Part shown: in pieces, positions 1,642 to 8,266 of the stretch
How positions within the stretch are numbered: position 1 is the stretch's first letter
Layout of the letters: the number at the start of each line of letters is the position of its first letter
From: a virus
Lineage: Duplodnaviria > Heunggongvirae > Uroviricota > Caudoviricetes
Length of the DNA: 8,266 nucleotides
Direction: 5' to 3' (one strand)
Virus record (IMG/VR): IMGVR_UViG_2740892234_000014
Notes under the pieces: model-generated
The model's database searches: none
The model's input: only the letters and a program-made list of their open reading frames with translations
What the model was told of the DNA's origin: nothing
Position numbers and translations under genes: made by a program

Positions 1642-1845
1642 ATGAAGCGTAAAAGTGTGGCTTTGTTACAAGCCATTGGCTCGGTTATAGCCCTGAGCCC
1701 GACGGTCGTTTCAGCAAATGGCATGCCAGCGAATCCAGTTTCCGCTTTGCGTCAGGATGCTGCGGCTATCAGAGGCGATTTCCAAAAAGCAATGGTATCC
1801 GTTAACGTTGAAAAGCTGAACAATGCCAGATCAAAAAGAAAGTGA
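1642..1845 (+). CDS. Hypothetical small protein (67 aa) with signal-peptide-like N-terminus (MKRKSVALLQAIGSVIALSPTVVSA|NG)
   Basis: ATG at 1642 preceded by AGGAG (1632-1636) at 5-nt spacing. The track ORF begins at an upstream TTG at 1624. TGA at 1843-1845. Overlaps the next ORF start by 23 nt. Confidence 0.4.
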   Translation: MKRKSVALLQAIGSVIALSPTVVSANGMPANPVSALRQDAAAIRGDFQKAMVSVNVEKLNNARSKRK

Positions 1846-2290
1846 GAACACCAAACTCACTTGTGAAGAACAAAAGGATAATGAACTGGTTTCTCGAGTA
1901 ATCGAAAATCCAGAGGTCTTAAACAGGGTTTTGGATAGTCCGCAGGTGCGGGCTATTGTTTGCCAGCATTTTCAGGGGCCTGTTCCGCCACCTTCAATGC
2001 TTAAAAAGTATGATCAACTGGTGCCTGGGCTTGCAAATCGACTTGTTGAGTTGACCGAAAAAGAGCAGGCTCATCGCCATAAAACAGTGGCTGATAGCAT
2101 TGATATTGCCAGAGATGGTCAAACAAAGGCTTTTTGGTTGGCAATATTGATCATCTTAGCTGCCACTGTCTTTGGCGTCATGGGGGAGACAGTTCTTGCC
2201 GGAACTCTCGTTTCAATAGATCTTGTTGCATTGGTTACGGCATTTATTGTTGGAAAACATTATTCTAAGCAGGAACCTGATCAAGATTAG
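1823..2290 (+). CDS. DUF2335-like predicted membrane protein (155 aa): soluble N-domain with PPP and HRH motifs plus two C-terminal TM helices
   Basis: ATG at 1823. Hydrophobic segments AFWLAILIILAATVFGVMG and LAGTLVSIDLVALVTAFIVG. The pattern ..PPPSMLKKY..EKEQAHRH.. matches my recollection of the DUF2335 family. Followed immediately by a terminator hairpin. Confidence 0.55.
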   Translation: MPDQKESENTKLTCEEQKDNELVSRVIENPEVLNRVLDSPQVRAIVCQHFQGPVPPPSMLKKYDQLVPGLANRLVELTEKEQAHRHKTVADSIDIARDGQTKAFWLAILIILAATVFGVMGETVLAGTLVSIDLVALVTAFIVGKHYSKQEPDQD

Positions 2291-2366: not shown

Positions 2367-3485
2367 TCAAACAACCAATTTAACCCATTCCTGACCACGA
2401 GTATCGTTATAACGATCGGTGGTTGCCTGGACTTTATGTCCCAGTAATGTTTTTGTATCAATACCCTGCGTGCGGTACAGTCGTTCTGACAGGGAGCGTT
2501 GTTCATGAAATGTTGGCGGAGTTTTTCCTGCTGGTGGAGTTATCCCAGCCAGATCCCGTGCTTTGGCAAAGTAGTCGCTCAGGTTGTCTTTACTCATCGG
2601 CTTTGGTTGTTTCTGGTGCCGACTATGGATTAGATATGGACTTAATATTCTGTCTCGGCACCCATCAATAACTTCTTTTAACGTTATCCCAATGGCATCA
2701 CAGCGTAGTGTAAGCGGTAACGCCAGACGCATTCCGGTTTTTCCCTGGGTGATATGCAAGTGTTCGTTCCACACATCTGAAAAACGCATGTGGCAAATGT
2801 CATCACGGCGCTGACCAGTAACAATCGCAAGAAGCATTGCGTTACGGATAAAGTGTTTTTCAGGCGTTGCGTTGTAAATTTTTTGCCAGTCTTCCAGGGT
2901 GAGCCTGGCTCTAGTTACTTTAGGGATCGGTTTACGGGTAGCCTCCGGAGGATTCCATCCAGGAGGAACTTCCCCTGCATGCTGTGCTTCTTTATAAATA
3001 TCAACCCATAATCCACGATTTACTCTCGCTGTGCTGACCATGTCTTTATCCAGCCACTCATCCAGTATTAATGCAAAGTCTCTTACTTCCAGTTCTTTCA
3101 ATGGGTGGTTTCCCAGACGGGAAACCAGGTATGCAGCCATTCGGGCTTTTTCTTTGTGAGTTGTAGCTGCAATATCTCCATTTTTCAGTCGCGTGTCCTG
3201 TATTTTCAGATATCGATCAACCCATGCCTTTAATCTGATACCCCGACGCTTTGTTGCTGACGGACTTTCATCAATTTTGCGCATGAAATATTCAGCCTCT
3301 GCTGCAGCTATTCGCTGATTGGCTGTGGAAGCGATTTTTTCTGCCTTACCTTTGTCTGTTCCGAGCCCGTGAAATTTTCCAGTCACAGGGTTTTTATACT
3401 GGTAGTAAACTCTGCCAGTTCTGCGATCAAATTTTTCGTAAAGTCCGGCTACGTCAGTGCTGTTTTTTCGTGGCCTCGGTGACAT
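2367..3485 (-). CDS. int: Tyrosine recombinase / phage integrase, lambda Int family (module B), 372 aa
   Basis: ATG at 3483-3485 with AAGGAG RBS upstream; TGA at 2367-2369. C-terminus TFHEQRSLSERLY...LLGHK...DRYNDTRGQEW closely parallels lambda Int TFHELRSLSARLY...LLGHK...QYRDDRGREW (recalled). Box I TGQRRDD and KTG present. Confidence 0.92.
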   Translation of the reverse strand: MSPRPRKNSTDVAGLYEKFDRRTGRVYYQYKNPVTGKFHGLGTDKGKAEKIASTANQRIAAAEAEYFMRKIDESPSATKRRGIRLKAWVDRYLKIQDTRLKNGDIAATTHKEKARMAAYLVSRLGNHPLKELEVRDFALILDEWLDKDMVSTARVNRGLWVDIYKEAQHAGEVPPGWNPPEATRKPIPKVTRARLTLEDWQKIYNATPEKHFIRNAMLLAIVTGQRRDDICHMRFSDVWNEHLHITQGKTGMRLALPLTLRCDAIGITLKEVIDGCRDRILSPYLIHSRHQKQPKPMSKDNLSDYFAKARDLAGITPPAGKTPPTFHEQRSLSERLYRTQGIDTKTLLGHKVQATTDRYNDTRGQEWVKLVV

Positions 3486-3723
3486 GAGTTAAAATCTCCT
3501 TCAGTGCATCATCATCGCCAGTATGAATTTCCGGCGCAATTCCTGTTTCACCAGGTCCAACAAATACTGCTCGGCGATCTATCAGCCAACGCCCACGAAT
3601 TTTTTGTGGTCTTGGAACGATGTATCCTAGTTTTCCGTATTTCACCAGGGTAGTGTTTGTTATTGGGAGACTGAACCGTTTTGGCTTCCACTCATCGAGC
3701 GTTATCAGGTACTGTTCGCTCAT
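3454..3723 (-). CDS. xis: Excisionase (lambda Xis-like), module B, about 89 aa
   Basis: MSEQYLITLDEWKPKRFSL... parallels the lambda Xis opening MYLTLQEWNARQRRPRSL (recalled). Overlaps the int start by 32 nt. The track ORF 3454-3732 begins at GTG; the ATG at 3721-3723 is the likelier start. Confidence 0.7.
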   Translation of the reverse strand: MSEQYLITLDEWKPKRFSLPITNTTLVKYGKLGYIVPRPQKIRGRWLIDRRAVFVGPGETGIAPEIHTGDDDALKEILTHVTEATKKQH

Positions 3724-3775
3724 GGCTATCACTCCGGAACGCGCCAGTTGCAGAATACCAACGACAACTGGCGAC

Positions 3776-3822
3776 GGTTGAACATTAAAAATCAGCCTGA
3801 CTCGGGATCAGTTTTTGCCAGA
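3776..3822. repeat. 47-bp direct repeat, copy 2 (contains the stop codon of the exonuclease gene)
   Basis: Identical to 1299-1345. Flanks diverge immediately 5' of the repeat (A: ..GCGATATGG, B: ..CTGGCGAC). Confidence 0.9.
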
Positions 3823-4477
3823 TAGCTGAAACGTATTTTGCCTGATAACGGGCGTCATCAAGTGCATTATGGCGCTCACCTTCGAATGGGATAGCAGTTC
3901 TGGCATCGAAGTCTATGGCTTTCCCCAGCTCAACGATTGTGCGTACATCGCGATCGTTGTAGTAACGCCACGGGCAGGGGATCCCCTGCCGTTCGTATGA
4001 ACGGCGCAAAATCGTGTTGTCGAAGTTGGCTCCATTTCCCCAGACCTGAACAAAAAATTCACCGGAGTTTTCGTCGATAAATTCCCGCAATTGTAACAGT
4101 GCATCATCTAACGGGATTTCATCGGTCATAATGGCAGATTGCGCTTCGCGTGATTGCTTAAGCCACCATTTAATGGTGTCCCGATCAATGACTCCGCCAG
4201 CAGTTTCCAGATCAATAGTCTTACTAAATTCCGGTCCCATATCTCCGGTTTGCGGATCGAAAAATATTGCACCTATTGAGATGATCGGGGCATCAGGATT
4301 TTTTCCCATGGTTTCAAGGTCGATCATTAGATGGTTACACGTCCTGCTGGTGGATGTGATTTCTTGATGACCGTTCACCTTAATTGAGAGATCTGCCGTC
4401 TCGCCAGTTTCATTATCGCTATCGTGATGCTGATTGCCGCCAGTGTTCTCCTTGTGTGGATGTTCAGCGCCTTCCAT
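3785..4477 (-). CDS. DEDDh (DnaQ-like) 3'-5' exonuclease domain, C-terminal part of the large prophage gene; this copy is cut off from upstream coding sequence by an in-frame TAG
   Basis: Motifs Exo I MIDLETMG, Exo [11 protein letters not shown], Exo [12 protein letters not shown], resembling Rv2179c-type 3'-5' exonucleases. TAA at 3785-3787. Track start is ATG at 4477; an alternative start is the ATG at 4325-4327 (MIDLETMG). In-frame TAG at 4532-4534 where the variant copies have CAG. Confidence 0.8.
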
Positions 4478-4582
4478 TTCCTCCGGATCATCTTCCTGAA
4501 CTTCAACCTGATACTCTTCATCGAATGTTTCCTAGTATGTTGCGTCGCCCATCACCGCGCCACAATCAGGGCAGTTGCCGCC

Positions 4583-4592
4583 NNNNNNNNNN
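4583..4592. other. Assembly gap (N10)
   Basis: Run of exactly 10 N. Confidence 0.95.
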
Positions 4593-4868
4593 CGCAGTGC
4601 CTTCCATTTCCTCCGGATCATTTTCCTGAACTTCAGGCTGATTCTCTCCATCGAATATTTCCTGGTATGTTGCGTCACCCATCACCGCACCACAATCAGG
4701 GCAGTTGCCGCCACCGCTCTGACCGCAGGCGGTGCAGATCTTTTCCGGTTCCTGTTGCACTACTGGTTCAGGTTGTTTCGTTTCTGGCTCGTTTTGTTGC
4801 GTATTTGGGCTGTTTTGTTCCGCTTTCTGGTCGTTCTGTTCCGTTTCTTGCTGGTTCTGGTTCACAGA
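4593..4868 (-). CDS. Fragment (allelic variant) of large gene: Q/E-rich linker + C4 zinc ribbon ([16 protein letters not shown])
   Basis: Open minus-strand frame across the contig. Near-identical to 4424-4582 and 4879-5157 with scattered SNPs. Confidence 0.55.
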
Positions 4869-4878
4869 NNNNNNNNNN
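4869..4878. other. Assembly gap (N10)
   Basis: Run of exactly 10 N. Confidence 0.95.
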
Positions 4879-5287
4879 TGCAGTACCTTCCATTTCCTCC
4901 GGATCATTTTCCTGAACTTCAGGCTGATTCTCTTCATCGAATATTTCCTGGTATGTTGCGTCGCCCATCACCGCGCCACAATCAGGGCAGTTGCCGCCGC
5001 CGGTCTGACCGCAGGCGGTGCAGACTTTTTCCACTTCCTGTTGCGCCACTGGTTCAGGCTGTTTCGTTTCTGGCTCGTTTTGTAACGCATTTGGGCTGTT
5101 TTGTTCCGCTTTTTGGTAGTTCCGTTCCGATTCATGCTGGTTCTGGTTTACAGAATCGCGGGTCTGGATCCCCTTAACCCATTTCGGATCATTCGGGTCG
5201 CTAATCCCTGCAACAAATTCTCCGCGAGAGGCAGCAAGCAACTTATCGGCGTCAGGCTGGCTGATATTGGCTGCCTGCATAATTTTG
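4879..5287 (-). CDS. Fragment of large gene: ..[37 protein letters not shown].. + Q/E-rich linker + C4 zinc ribbon ([16 protein letters not shown]); continues in frame into the exonuclease domain
   Basis: Open minus-strand frame across the whole contig. Its 3' end (..DPEEMEGTA) matches the MEGAEHPH.. start of the 3785-4477 ORF. Confidence 0.6.
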
Positions 5288-5297
5288 NNNNNNNNNN
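5288..5297. other. Assembly gap (N10)
   Basis: Run of exactly 10 N. Confidence 0.95.
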
Positions 5298-5609
5298 TTC
5301 AATCCCCTTCACCCATTTCGGATCATTCGGGTCGCTAATCCCTGCAACAAATTCACCACGTGATGCGGCGAGCAACTGATTGGCGTCAGGCTGGCTGATA
5401 TTGGCTGCCTGCATAATTTTCTTTACTTCGTCAGCGGTAACTTTTACCGGTTCTGGTTGTTCAGAATTTTGTGCGGTATTTGCATTTTGCGGTAAGCCTG
5501 TGTATGTGCCATTTTTTCGGGCAAAATATTCTTCTTTTGTGATTTCAGTAGCCCCGGCAGCCAGCGCCTTATCCAGACCAGAAAGTTTGTTTGCGCGACC
5601 GTATTTTTC
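5298..5609 (-). CDS. Fragment of large gene (..[61 protein letters not shown]..)
   Basis: Open minus-strand frame. Overlaps in content with contigs 4879-5287, 5620-5790 and 5801-5883 (variants). Confidence 0.5.
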
Positions 5610-5619
5610 NNNNNNNNNN
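5610..5619. other. Assembly gap (N10)
   Basis: Run of exactly 10 N. Confidence 0.95.
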
Positions 5620-5790
5620 AACTTTTACTGACCCTGGTTGTGCGGTCGTGTCAGATGCACCAGTATTTTGTTGTGAACCTGAGTATGTACCGTTTTTGCG
5701 GGCGAAATATTCTTCTTTCGTGATTTCAGTAGCCCCAGCAGACAGCGCCTTATCCAGACCAGAAAGTTTGTTTGCGCGACCGTATTTTTC
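5620..5790 (-). CDS. Fragment (allelic variant) of large gene ([42 protein letters not shown]..)
   Basis: Open frame, translated by hand. Ends at the same junction (..GTATTTTTC) as contig 5298-5609. Confidence 0.5.
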
Positions 5791-5800
5791 NNNNNNNNNN
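5791..5800. other. Assembly gap (N10)
   Basis: Run of exactly 10 N. Confidence 0.95.
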
Positions 5801-5883
5801 TCAACAAATTCACCACGTGATACTGCAAGCAGTTCATCGGCGTCAGGCTGGCTGATATTGGCTGCCTGCATAATTTTGTTTAC

Positions 5884-5893
5884 NNNNNNNNNN
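5884..5893. other. Assembly gap (N10)
   Basis: Run of exactly 10 N. Confidence 0.95.
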
Positions 5894-6224
5894 GGCAGCC
5901 AGTGCCTTATCCAGACCAGAAAGTTTGTTTGCGCGACCGTATTTTTCGCCATCCTTGTCGGTGAAGAGGAAGTAGAACGGCCCCTCACGCTCTACAGATG
6001 GTTCGACTTCCACTTTGCATTCGGTTTTTTCGTTGTCCGGAATTGCCGTTTCCACTGCATCAGTTTCTGGTACTGGCGACGAGAGAGTGTCAGTTGCGCT
6101 CTGATTTGTTCCTTCATCTTCAAACACGCCCTTTGTAGTCAGGTATTCAGTAATGTATTTGTTCAGTGCCACAGGGTCTTTGTGAATGTCGATCGGACGT
6201 TCACGGACAAGGCCAAAAATAGTC
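5894..6224 (-). CDS. Fragment of large gene (TIFGLVRERPIDIHKDPVALNKYITEYLTTKGVFEDE..acidic TDAVET linker..[32 protein letters not shown])
   Basis: Open minus-strand frame across the contig. The track M at 6172 is a GTG codon inside the frame. Confidence 0.55.
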
Positions 6225-6234
6225 NNNNNNNNNN
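6225..6234. other. Assembly gap (N10)
   Basis: Run of exactly 10 N. Confidence 0.95.
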
Positions 6235-6454
6235 AGCTTCCGGCGCGGTTTCATTTTTTGGGATATCAGATACCTCAGTTTCCACTGCATCAGTTTGTGT
6301 TTCTGATGACTGGAGAACATCAACAGTGCCCAGGTCTGTTTCTTCATTCTCAAACACGCCCTTTGTCGTCAGGTATTCGCAGATATATTTGTTCAGTGCT
6401 ACGGGATCTTTGTGAATGTCGATCGGACGTTCACGGACAAGGCCAAAAATAGTC
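6235..6454 (-). CDS. Fragment (length-variant allele) of large gene (TIFGLVRERPIDIHKDPVALNKYICEYLTTKGVFENEETDLGTVDVLQSSETQTDAVETEVSDIPKNETAPEA)
   Basis: Hand translation of the reverse complement. Shares about 100 nt with the start of contig 5894-6224, then differs by indel-type divergence in the acidic linker. Confidence 0.5.
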
Positions 6455-6464
6455 NNNNNNNNNN
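6455..6464. other. Assembly gap (N10)
   Basis: Run of exactly 10 N. Confidence 0.95.
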
Positions 6465-6583
6465 ATATTCGCGACGAATGACTGCAGTGACAGGGGGGAT
6501 TTTTTCTGCTGAGTTTTCAGTGTGCTGTCGGTGGACTCTGGCGCGGGCGAGATCAACAACAGACGTGTATTTTCCGGTTTCCT

Positions 6584-6593
6584 NNNNNNNNNN
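6584..6593. other. Assembly gap (N10)
   Basis: Run of exactly 10 N. Confidence 0.95.
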
Positions 6594-6653
6594 ACTGTTG
6601 ATTGGCTCTGGCGCGGGCGAGATCAACAACAGACGTGTATTTTCCGGTTTCCT

Positions 6654-6663
6654 NNNNNNNNNN
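6654..6663. other. Assembly gap (N10)
   Basis: Run of exactly 10 N. Confidence 0.95.
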
Positions 6664-7178
6664 GTATTCGCGATGAATGGCAGCAATGACCGGGCTGATT
6701 TTTCCTGTTGAATTTTCAGTGTGCTGTTGATTGGTTCTGGCGCGGGCGAGATCAACAACAGACGTGTATTTTCCGGTTTCCTTGCGTTCACCTTCGCGAC
6801 GTTTTTTCCAGATGCGCATTTCTGCCTGAATTTCGGGCCATTTGGCACCAGGCTTACATTTATGCTTAACCCACCCGATGGCATGCAGCTTAAGCTCCGG
6901 ATACATGGCGTTAACTTCTGGCATTTTCATCAACGCTTCAACGATATGTCCGTCGAATGTTGCCATGTCTTCCTGCAACAATTCCTGTGCGCTAATAACC
7001 ATATCAACGGTGATGTTTTCACATGTGTCGAACTTAACCATGACAGCGTTCTGTACTTCAGGGGCCAGCTTGTCAAAAGCGACGTTCATCGGATCTGATT
7101 CAGTCTCAACCGGGACAAAGGAAGCAGCCCCCTCATCCCAGCGGTTTTCCTGCATATATTCAGCATCCCAGGAATCGA
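6664..7178 (-). CDS. Fragment of large gene (..DSWDAEYMQENRWDEGAASFVPVETESDPMNVAFDKLAPEVQNAVMVKFD...KLHAIGWVKHKCKPGAKWPEIQAEMRIWKKRREGERKETGKYTSVVDLARARTNQQ..)
   Basis: Open minus-strand frame across the contig. Its upper end (DSWDAEY) abuts the ..PALDS end of the N-terminal fragment at 7576-7797. No family recognised. Confidence 0.55.
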
Positions 7179-7188
7179 NNNNNNNNNN
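7179..7188. other. Assembly gap (N10)
   Basis: Run of exactly 10 N. Confidence 0.95.
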
Positions 7189-7279
7189 TGACGTTCATCG
7201 GATAGGATTCAGTCTCAACCGGGACAAAAGAAGCAGACTCCTCATCCCAGCGGTTTTCCTGCATATATTCAGCATCCCA

Positions 7280-7289
7280 NNNNNNNNNN
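7280..7289. other. Assembly gap (N10)
   Basis: Run of exactly 10 N. Confidence 0.95.
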
Positions 7290-7382
7290 AGCACCAGGAA
7301 TACATTTATGCTTAACCCACCCAATGGCGTGCAACTTAAGCTCCGGATACATGGCGTTAACTTCTGGCATTTTCATCAACGC

Positions 7383-7392
7383 NNNNNNNNNN
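7383..7392. other. Assembly gap (N10)
   Basis: Run of exactly 10 N. Confidence 0.95.
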
Positions 7393-7565
7393 GGGCAGGG
7401 CGGGGTATACCGGGTTTATCCTCGCAAACAAGAAATTTATAAGCGCAGTCCTGAGCAGCCGGATAATGTTCCAGGAATTGCCAGTGAAATTTTGCTCGAG
7501 CACGGCGTTCGTCGCCAGCTTCAATGGCAGTGGCTACAGCGACTGCACCTTCTTCCTTTATTGCC

Positions 7566-7575
7566 NNNNNNNNNN
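7566..7575. other. Assembly gap (N10)
   Basis: Run of exactly 10 N. Confidence 0.95.
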
Positions 7576-7797
7576 TGAATCGAGGGCAGGGCGGGGTATG
7601 CCAGGTTTATCCTCGCAGACAATAAATTTATAAGCGCAGTCCTGAGCAGCCGGATAATGTTCCAGGAATTGCCAGTGAAATTTTGCGCGGGCGCGACATT
7701 CATCACCGGCTTCAATGGCAGTGGCTACAGCGACTGCACCTTCTTCCTTTATTGCCTGTTCGTCCGGAATGGCGGCGCAAATAAAGACTTTACTCAT
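7576..7797 (-). CDS. N-terminal fragment of large prophage gene (MSKVFICAAIPDEQAIKEEGAVAVATAIEAGDECRARAKFHWQFLEHYPAAQDCAYKFIVCEDKPGIPRPALDS..), positionally equivalent to ydfE of the Qin dicB operon
   Basis: ATG at 7795-7797 with GAGG about 9 nt upstream. Immediately downstream (in transcription order) of the ydfD-like gene. Contig 7393-7565 is a SNP variant of the same segment. The ydfE assignment is from recalled K-12 gene order, not sequence identity. Confidence 0.55.
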
Positions 7798-7889
7798 TTT
7801 GTTTTACCTCATTACAGATTTAAGGGTGAACAAATCCCTGCCATTGCTGGCATATAAGAATGAAATCGGATGTTTATTACGGAACTGTT

Positions 7890-8081
7890 TTAAAGACCTG
7901 CCGGGATTTCGTTATTATCCTGGTGAATAACTTTATCGACCGGGTAACAGTTACCGGGAATTTTCTGTTCGGTTGCTGCAGTCACACACTCCTGCATTGT
8001 CCTGTGAACACTGACTGCAATATCAACTGGCTCTCCGGAAACAAGAAAAACTGTCAGAACAAGTGCAAATGCTGTATTCAT
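7890..8081 (-). CDS. ydfD: YdfD-like small membrane/lysis protein (63 aa; MNTAFALVLTVFLVSGEP...)
   Basis: ATG at 8079-8081 overlaps the dicB stop (ATGA overlap, translational coupling); TAA at 7890-7892. N-terminal hydrophobic helix. Length and sequence match my recollection of Qin-prophage YdfD. The track ORF extends to an upstream ATG at 8135, which is less likely. Confidence 0.7.
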   Translation of the reverse strand: MNTAFALVLTVFLVSGEPVDIAVSVHRTMQECVTAATEQKIPGNCYPVDKVIHQDNNEIPAGL

Positions 8082-8266
8082 TGCCAGCATCCTTTTTGTA
8101 TCGGACGTAAACGGGCCAGCATTGAAAGAATGCATATTTTATTTAATAGCTCCCGTTCGTGTTTTCTCTTGTTAATGGCATCTTCAGTAAATACAGGGTT
8201 ACTGATAGTGACACCAATTTCAAAACAACCTTCAGACGTATTAACGTTTGGTAATAACGTTTCCAT
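8078..8266 (-). CDS. dicB: DicB-like cell-division inhibitor (62 aa)
   Basis: METLLPNVNTSEGCFEIGVTISNPVFTEDAINKRK.ERELLNKICI.SMLARLR matches the recalled Qin DicB sequence over nearly its whole length. ATG at 8264-8266, TGA at 8078-8080. Confidence 0.8.
   Translation of the reverse strand: METLLPNVNTSEGCFEIGVTISNPVFTEDAINKRKHERELLNKICILSMLARLRPIQKGCWQ

Follow-up and report, generated by a model that had tools for sequence, protein, structure and literature searches.

Closest described systems

RecE, encoded by the Rac prophage of Escherichia coli K-12, combines an N-terminal PF06630 domain with a C-terminal PD-(D/E)XK nuclease that works in the 5'-to-3' direction, and recT lies 3' of its gene. 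A 2023 review of recombineering proteins called its N-terminal region (about 560 residues) 'of unknown function', and noted that full-length RecE enhances linear-linear recombination and is needed for efficiency in direct cloning (PMC11611040). Phage T4 encodes a 3'-5' DNA exonuclease, DexA, and a standalone DexA homologue of E. coli, EcD (HREX, HAK9828821.1), is known by experiment as a DNA exonuclease that degrades DNA containing 5-hydroxymethylcytosine (5hmC) and protects against T4 (PMC12153337, 2025). We consider here a gene that borders on all these systems. It lies on the minus strand of a stretch of tailed-phage DNA of 8,266 bases (IMG/VR virus record IMGVR_UViG_2740892234_000014, in what follows the window), and its intact form encodes a protein of 823 residues which, as judged from its sequence, is firmly a mosaic of a YdfE-type N-terminus, a RecE-homologous non-catalytic region and a DEDDh exonuclease head. 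The reading that we prefer, and that we hold to be somewhat probable, is that the window encodes K-12 ydfE in its intact form, distributed among as many as three allelic copies: a protein of the early-left operon of Qin/Sp-type lambdoid prophages, in which a RecE-family scaffold would carry a DexA-like 3'-to-5' DNA exonuclease head meant for DNA ends during induction and lytic growth.

The protein is like RecE in its operon slot (the end of the early-left operon, just 5' of xis-int), in its size (823 residues against 866) and in the non-catalytic region, including a four-cysteine motif (Cys4). It differs from RecE by its YdfE-type N-terminus, by a head of 3'-to-5' DEDDh type and by the lack of an annealase neighbour. 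T4 DexA is the closest solved structure to this head, with all five DEDDh residues conserved, but the identity is about 27%, DexA is a standalone protein of 227 residues with extra loops, and its residues W152, D169 and possibly D90 are not clearly conserved in the 823-residue protein. EcD belongs to the same domain family and to the same host species, but it is short, standalone and starts with MIDTET (as read from its primers), whereas the present head starts with MIDLET and forms the C-terminus of a long protein; on this comparison EcD is distinct from that C-terminus. The primer sequences published for EcD had no exact match in the viral or genome collections; an NdeI site and in-frame stops in the reverse primer make a synthetic template probable. 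Mycobacterium tuberculosis Rv2179c, or RNase AS (PDB 4OKE, 6S0M), shares the Pfam family PF16473 and the DEDDh fold, but is RNA-specific and standalone, and its structural match to the head is of the order of 1e-4 against 2e-9 for DexA.

A mosaic of YdfE and RecE parts

Residues 1-256 are 87% identical to K-12 YdfE, and the order dicB-ydfD-ydfE is the same in both operons. The K-12 gene is interrupted by IS2E, so that it ends after about 256 homologous residues and has neither mid module nor tether nor nuclease; strain ECCWS199 has the intact version at the same locus, next to rspB. K-12 ydfE is thus best read as a truncated remnant of the intact 823-residue gene, and the ydfE slot proposed for this gene in an earlier note, made from the letters of the window alone, is borne out.

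The relation to RecE is of another kind. Residues 262-625 align with RecE 278-591 (BLASTP, 2e-62, 39% identity), and the identity climbs to about 80% in the final 150 residues of the shared region, the CxxC-x7-CxxC motif included. In the window this segment of 150 residues around Cys4 (contigs S3 and S4, 4593-5287) is about 80% identical to Rac RecE (L003, 3787-6387) and the remainder is far more diverged, which suggests a recent exchange between recE and the 823-residue gene among E. coli prophages. The spacing C-x2-C-x7-C-x2-C, which the earlier note had pointed out as a zinc ribbon, is present at 4978-5022 in S4 and at 4692-4736 in S3. Among 60 long representatives of the family, Cys4 occurs in the 823-residue protein type only, and K-12 RecE has it as well.

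None of this extends to the catalytic part. With a local copy of Pfam, PF16473 at residues 642-813 is the one family reported across the protein, along with PF00929 in the same analysis; the RecE domains PF06630 and PD-(D/E)XK are both absent from it by Pfam, whereas K-12 RecE shows PF06630 at residues 2-178 and PF12684 at its C-terminus. Near-identical proteins bear precomputed PF27430 and PF27432 labels on their N-terminal half, from a newer Pfam release; the local copy has neither of these two families. The NCBIfam equivalog of RecE, NF007259, reaches 283.6 bits, below its cutoff of 1269, with an alignment confined to positions 267-602 of the 877 in the model, and a probe made of RecE 600-866 found no match to the DEDDh-headed architecture among the 60 long representatives. 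PHROGs assigns the entire protein to phrog_2082, 'exonuclease'. As it has neither a PD-(D/E)XK domain nor a recT neighbour, 'exonuclease VIII' is a misnomer for the 823-residue protein, and the caution voiced earlier over 'exodeoxyribonuclease VIII', a name that some sources still use for this gene, was justified. The annotation question is therefore settled, the gene not being that of exonuclease VIII despite the shared non-catalytic region of RecE. The earlier comparison with RecE was right in that the nucleases differ; it has to be corrected in that a true homology to RecE exists in the middle of the protein. RefSeq, PHROGs and Pfam already have annotations for the family, which is hence not new.

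The DEDDh head and the predicted structure

The head occupies the 3' end of the gene, with its catalytic codons intact in the copy that the window contains:

3818..4333, minus strand: DEDDh 3'-5' exonuclease domain, Rv2179c/DexA-like (PF16473, DexA-invariant columns, Foldseek)
4319-4321, minus strand: catalytic codon D646
4313-4315, minus strand: catalytic codon E648
4019-4021, minus strand: catalytic codon D746
3869-3871, minus strand: catalytic codon H796
3854-3856, minus strand: catalytic codon D801

The match to PF16473 reaches 226.6 bits against a cutoff of 27 (E=2.2e-67) and covers profile positions 2-177 of 177. The five catalytic columns correspond to D7, E9, D119, H186 and D191 of DexA, and are invariant in DexA, in the window copy and in standalone enterobacterial homologues. 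A Foldseek search with the head places T4 DexA (8KEN/8KEL, the sequence of 8KEL having been checked as T4 exonuclease A) at the top with 2e-9, followed at about 2e-5 to 1e-4 by REXO2, Orn, 3'hExo, ERI, Cap18 and RNase AS (Rv2179c), and DexA is the sole match when the PDB is searched by sequence. That the gene ends in a DEDDh exonuclease domain, and not in the PD-(D/E)XK fold of RecE, is thus confirmed. The positions through which DexA is proposed to read 5hmC are less constant: W152 is aligned to Tyr, D169 to Phe with Asp at -1 and +1, and the alignments disagree on D90, given as Ala by HMMER and as Asp by MAFFT.

The AlphaFold2 (AF2) model of residues 1-441 has a mean predicted local distance difference test score (pLDDT) of 86. 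It consists of confident modules separated by disordered linkers: an alpha/beta module (1-100), two helical modules (105-222 and 245-340) and a small beta/alpha module (388-432). At full length a marginal helical pair follows (458-482), then disorder over residues 500-636, Cys4 included, and at last the confident DEDDh domain (640-820). We may picture the protein as beads on a string, in which four folded N-terminal modules would be followed by a mostly disordered tether of about 140 residues, acidic and rich in Q, E and P, with Cys4 in it, and then by the DEDDh head.

Interchangeable heads on a common scaffold

A deep search with the N-terminal 441 residues recovered only 192 representatives among 1.84 billion clustered proteins, and the 60 long ones were probed with domain segments of both the 823-residue protein and RecE. 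A mid region is shared, residues 261-460 here and about 201-450 in RecE. Its N-terminal partner is of YdfE type or of PF06630 type, its C-terminal one a DEDDh or a PD-(D/E)XK head, and each of the four possible pairings was found.

A third type of head, with no match in the local Pfam, is present in 20 further representatives, about one third of the long relatives. Taken as a single sequence it had no match in Pfam, the PDB or NCBIfam, nor with RecT by hhalign, and a first hhalign comparison with RAD52 was marginal only. Its standalone homologues, 40-43% identical to the head (E about 1e-38), nevertheless lie above the gathering score of Pfam Rad52_Rad22 (26-30 bits against 20.3), and the profile of the family aligns with the core of human RAD52 over 130 columns (hhalign, P=1.9e-4; the human query was validated against 1H2I and 1KN0). 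The third head is accordingly, as far as profiles tell, a Rad52/Rad22-family annealase. Its carriers, among them P0247, P0251, P0252 and Pectobacterium phage ZF40 (H63, JQ177065.1 2921-3544, 'putative exonuclease'), have the YdfE-type N-terminus and the RecE-like mid module in common with the 823-residue protein and differ from it in having an annealase in place of the nuclease. PHROG 7838 and many phage records name such Rad52-headed proteins 'exonuclease', which looks like an annotation inherited from the RecE-like N-terminus. A fourth type of tail, of about 200-300 residues (phrog_26058), is found on the same scaffold in P0245, P0323, P0324, P0331, P0334, P0352, P0361, P0367, P0380 and P0385; it gave no match in Pfam, NCBIfam or the PDB.

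The scaffold therefore bears one of two nucleases that differ in polarity, or else an annealase, and this swapping of heads on a RecE scaffold, including the mislabelled Rad52-type ones, is the most interesting by-product of the analysis. Since it is also fused to PD-(D/E)XK nucleases or to Rad52-type annealases, the scaffold can be tied to transactions at DNA ends. One may go further and suppose, tentatively and at odds that we put below even, that a conserved mid module with one of two N-termini carries interchangeable DNA-end heads (5'-to-3' PD-(D/E)XK, 3'-to-5' DexA-type, Rad52-type and the fourth), that the scaffold serves as a common device for targeting or assembly at DNA ends, and that the DEDDh form would be the polarity-inverted, annealase-independent counterpart of RecE in Qin/Sp-type prophages. 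If this were true, the head swaps found in nature would offer a direct way into the role of the RecE N-terminus. That a single scaffold naturally bears nucleases of opposite polarity, or an annealase, suggests experiments of head swapping and of interaction.

The gene in complete genomes and its evolution

In complete genomes the gene is a single coding sequence. In E. coli O145:H28 RM12581 it measures 2,472 nt (823 aa), bears the annotation 'exonuclease' and is flanked by DUF1482/dicB and xis/int; in ECCWS199 the intact 823-residue copy lies at the Qin locus adjoining rspB, 3' of ydfA, ydfB, dicB and ydfD; the order of genes from dicA to int in the prophage record LC567839 is the same as in the complete genomes. 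The 3' part of the gene is present in 4,710 of the 5,426 complete E. coli genomes, in a median of two places per genome and a maximum of eight. The domain being thus prophage-borne in about 87% of these genomes, many of the 'bacterial' homologues of DexA may be this prophage gene or fragments of it; the paper on HREX counts about 1,200 Escherichia 'bacterial DexA homologues' and makes no mention of prophages or of multidomain forms (PMC12153337).

Intact copies of 811-823 residues also exist in E. ruysiae and E. albertii. Pairwise ratios of nonsynonymous to synonymous divergence (dN/dS) range from 0.04 to 0.20 for the head and the folded modules and from 0.4 to 0.76 for the linkers, which shows the long open reading frame (ORF) to be a gene under selection whose tethers evolve fast. 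Within one pair of genes dS ranges from 0.03 to more than 0.7 between segments, which indicates intragenic recombination and fits the allelic fragmentation of the window. Most database entries for the gene are 'partial', and we can therefore understand that it routinely breaks short-read assemblies: being present in many copies and internally mosaic, the locus shatters.

Loss has also been frequent. In E. coli O145:H28 strain 16003 (L001, 6386-9533) an IS3-family element splits the gene, which is listed there as a pseudogene; taken with IS2E in K-12 this points to repeated loss of the N-terminal half mediated by insertion sequences. The Shigella flexneri copy is broken at codon 37.

Close copies of the gene (69-85% identity) also occur in two metagenome-assembled genomes, one assigned to Veillonella parvula (L010) and one to a soil 'Proteobacteria bacterium' (L014); they most likely reflect binning contamination.

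Composition of the window

The window is made of 16 contigs joined through spacers of 10 N. Thirteen of them, S3-S15, are short pieces of 60-515 nt that overlap one another at 83-98% identity, and every one maps to the single minus-strand gene. When the resolved 823-residue reference is compared with the contigs by tblastn, alleles are found stacked up to three deep across residues 205-596; residues 1-243 and 308-823 are covered, and no contig of the window matches residues 244-307, which are most simply explained by an unplaced contig. All segments are open in the frame of the reference, with one exception in S2:

7576..7797, minus strand: contig S16, gene start, residues 1-74, ATG at 7797-7795 (tblastn, 97% identity to the reference)
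7393..7565, minus strand: contig S15, second allele of residues 15-71 (100% identity to the reference, open frame)
7189..7382, minus strand: contigs S13 (7189-7279) and S14 (7290-7382), short allelic variants of residues 75-104 and 153-182 (contig overlap, tblastn, open frame)
6664..7178, minus strand: contig S12, residues 73-243, end of N-terminal module 1 and helical module 2 of the YdfE-type region (tblastn; AF2 modules 1-100 and 105-222 at pLDDT >90)
6465..6653, minus strand: contigs S10 (6465-6583) and S11 (6594-6653), allelic variants of residues 205-243 and 205-223 (contig overlap, tblastn, open frame)
6235..6454, minus strand: contig S9, divergent allele of residues 308-379, acidic linker at 65% amino acid identity, with its own single TDAVET (contig overlap, tblastn, open frame)
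5894..6224, minus strand: contig S8, residues 308-416, end of the RecE-shared mid module, acidic linker with one TDAVET, small beta/alpha module 4 (tblastn; AF2 modules 245-340 and 388-432)
5298..5883, minus strand: contigs S5 (5298-5609), S6 (5620-5790) and S7 (5801-5883), alleles of residues 400-503, 400-456 and 461-487 (tblastn, open frame)
4879..5287, minus strand: contig S4, residues 463-596, RecE-like central segment, Q/E/P-rich linker and Cys4 motif (tblastn, RecE alignment, open frame)
4593..4868, minus strand: contig S3, further allele of residues 507-596 with Cys4 motif (open frame; 100% identical to DEDDh-type genes in complete genomes)
3785..4582, minus strand: contig S2, 3' part of the gene, residues 559-823 and TAA at 3785-3787 (tblastn, open-frame check)
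4532..4534, minus strand: in-frame amber TAG of contig S2, in place of CAG (Gln575) (frame comparison with the other alleles and with complete genomes)

A Shine-Dalgarno-like GAGG stands about 9 nt 5' of the ATG at 7797, and S6 and S7 agree with the allele of ECCWS199. ORFs on the plus strand of the region (for example 4575-5177 and 5591-6415) were rejected because they cross the N spacers and low-complexity antisense sequence.

The earlier note had described one continuous frame of 900-1000 residues between the ATG and the TAA. A large multidomain prophage gene is indeed there, on the minus strand and with both of these ends, and it is a single coding sequence in resolved haplotypes; the window itself holds no single continuous frame, since it is broken into contigs, lacks residues 244-307 and has the TAG of S2, and the resolved length is 823 residues. 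The acidic and Q/E/P-rich linkers are present as described. The repetition of TDAVET is an artefact of the assembly, as each haplotype has one such motif and the apparent repeat comes from the allelic contigs S8 and S9. As for stop codons that would split the region into several genes, one copy in the window has such a codon, and the gene family does not.

That copy deserves attention, because S2, which bears the amber codon, is also the sole contig of the window with the nuclease domain. The site is CAG in alleles S3 and S4 as well as in complete genomes. None of the 3,511 records matched by an 80-nt probe around it in the 5,426 complete E. coli genomes has the TAG allele, the best match being 79/80. 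Given that the codon sits 49 nt from the end of the contig, the TAG at 4534-4532 reflects a private nonsense mutation or else an error in the assembly. The longest ORF past it is 3785-4477 (230 aa), and if the amber codon were real, the nuclease head would be uncoupled from the scaffold in the head-bearing copy of this assembly.

What the protein may do

The protein would be made from the early-left operon, controlled by DicA and containing dicB, of Qin/Sp-type lambdoid prophages. In it the PD-(D/E)XK head of RecE would have been replaced by a 3'-to-5' exonuclease like that of T4, and from the catalytic residues and the fold we infer that this head is a Mg2+-dependent enzyme acting on the 3' ends of DNA. 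The scaffold may target or organise the head at DNA ends in prophage induction and lytic growth; as the N-terminal modules have no informative structural relative, this targeting is a matter of pure conjecture. End processing, trimming associated with recombination, or scavenging of DNA are conceivable uses, and a role as 5'-to-3' resection partner of an annealase, in the manner of RecE, would not be expected.

Several observations weigh against this reading. The structure search with the N-terminal modules returned no informative relative. The Cys4 segment is modelled at a pLDDT of about 31-36 only, and the motif is confined to close relatives in E. coli. No annealase gene is annotated near the 823-residue gene in the early operon, xis being directly next to it in RM12581, in the prophage record and in ECCWS199. 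Resection in the 3'-to-5' direction leaves no 3' tails of the kind used in classical phage recombination, and for these two reasons a part in recombination is not obvious. Pseudogene copies are known from K-12, from O145 strain 16003 (the IS3 insertion), from PPompW (a frameshift) and from S. flexneri, to which the amber codon found here has to be added. A search of the literature found no study of the 823-residue protein, biochemical or genetic.

Other explanations share part of the same evidence. The gene might serve as an anti-phage or superinfection-exclusion nuclease of the HREX type, which would shield the lysogen by degrading the 5hmC DNA of incoming T-even phages, as EcD degrades the DNA of T4, not unmodified DNA, and protects E. 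coli from this phage (PMC12153337). That DexA is the closest solved fold of the head, that the gene is prophage-borne and extremely widespread, and that PADLOC returns a match to the head, although a weak and generic one to a CRISPR-associated DEDDh family, would all agree with such a function. We nevertheless think it unlikely: the proposed 5hmC readers are not clearly kept (W152 has become Tyr, D169 Phe between Asp residues, and the alignments conflict over D90), EcD falls outside the 120 closest homologues, the gene sits in a repressor-controlled early operon without a promoter of its own, and the scaffold that bears the head is of RecE type and, in sister proteins, comes with recombination heads. 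An HREX-type role is all the same worth testing, the related standalone domain being an anti-T4 defence and the gene here being near-ubiquitous. Still further from our expectation, and in our view very improbable, is an exoribonuclease like M. tuberculosis RNase AS that would trim the 3' ends of host or phage RNA in lytic growth. The Pfam family is named for Rv2179c, many copies in RefSeq are called '3'-5' exoribonuclease (domain-containing protein)', and matches of the fold extend to Orn, REXO2, ERI and RNase AS; but DexA, a DNA exonuclease, is structurally better by about four orders of magnitude and is the only PDB match by sequence, the scaffold to which the head is joined is that of a DNA recombination nuclease, and in sister proteins the place of this head is taken by others that work on DNA.

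A different view would be that the gene is a remnant in decay, at least here, its head copy having been killed by a nonsense mutation and the other fragments being functionless prophage debris. The in-frame TAG unique to this assembly, the absence of residues 244-307 and the commonness of pseudogenised copies in other genomes would be natural consequences. We take this to be quite unlikely, since the codon lies 49 nt from a contig end in a region of multiple alleles where assembly errors are likely, alleles S3 and S4 have CAG there, every other segment is open, the missing piece has its simplest account in an unplaced contig, and purifying selection acts on this family, of which E. coli, E. 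albertii and E. ruysiae all have intact copies. We thus retain the reading of a functional exonuclease of the early-left operon, with the reservations made above.

Neighbouring genes and flanks

The genes on either side of the 823-residue gene are those of a lambdoid early-left operon followed by an integration module:

8081-8266, minus strand: DicB, upstream partner (Pfam PF05358, E=2e-37)
7893-8135, minus strand: DUF1482/YdfD-like protein, upstream partner (Pfam PF07358, E=8e-25)
3457-3732, minus strand: excisionase (Exc), downstream (Pfam PF07825; same arrangement in complete genomes)
2370-3485, minus strand: lambda-type integrase (Int), downstream (Pfam PF09003 and PF00589; same arrangement in complete genomes)

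The gene is thus placed directly 5' of xis-int, as had been proposed. A scan found no sigma-70-like promoter above chance immediately 5' of it, which is consistent with co-transcription with dicB, and a scan of the region for terminators returned nothing beyond chance. In the gap of 95 nt between the DUF1482 gene and this one there is a weak terminator-like hairpin (7839-7852, minus strand), no more than chance would provide.

Directly past the integrase, on the opposite strand, 1823-2287 (plus strand) encodes a DUF2335 predicted membrane protein of 155 residues; in RM12581 potC flanks that integrase in place of the DUF2335 gene, so that the integration site or the flank differs. The first contig, S1 (1-1345), contains a second and different integration module on the minus strand, with the integrase at 4-1020 and an excisionase-like ORF (DUF4224) at 1001-1240. 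The final 47 nt of S1 (1299-1345) are identical to 3776-3822, the 3' end of the large gene, and at least two prophages of the source genome therefore share this 3' end of the gene and differ in their int/xis modules.

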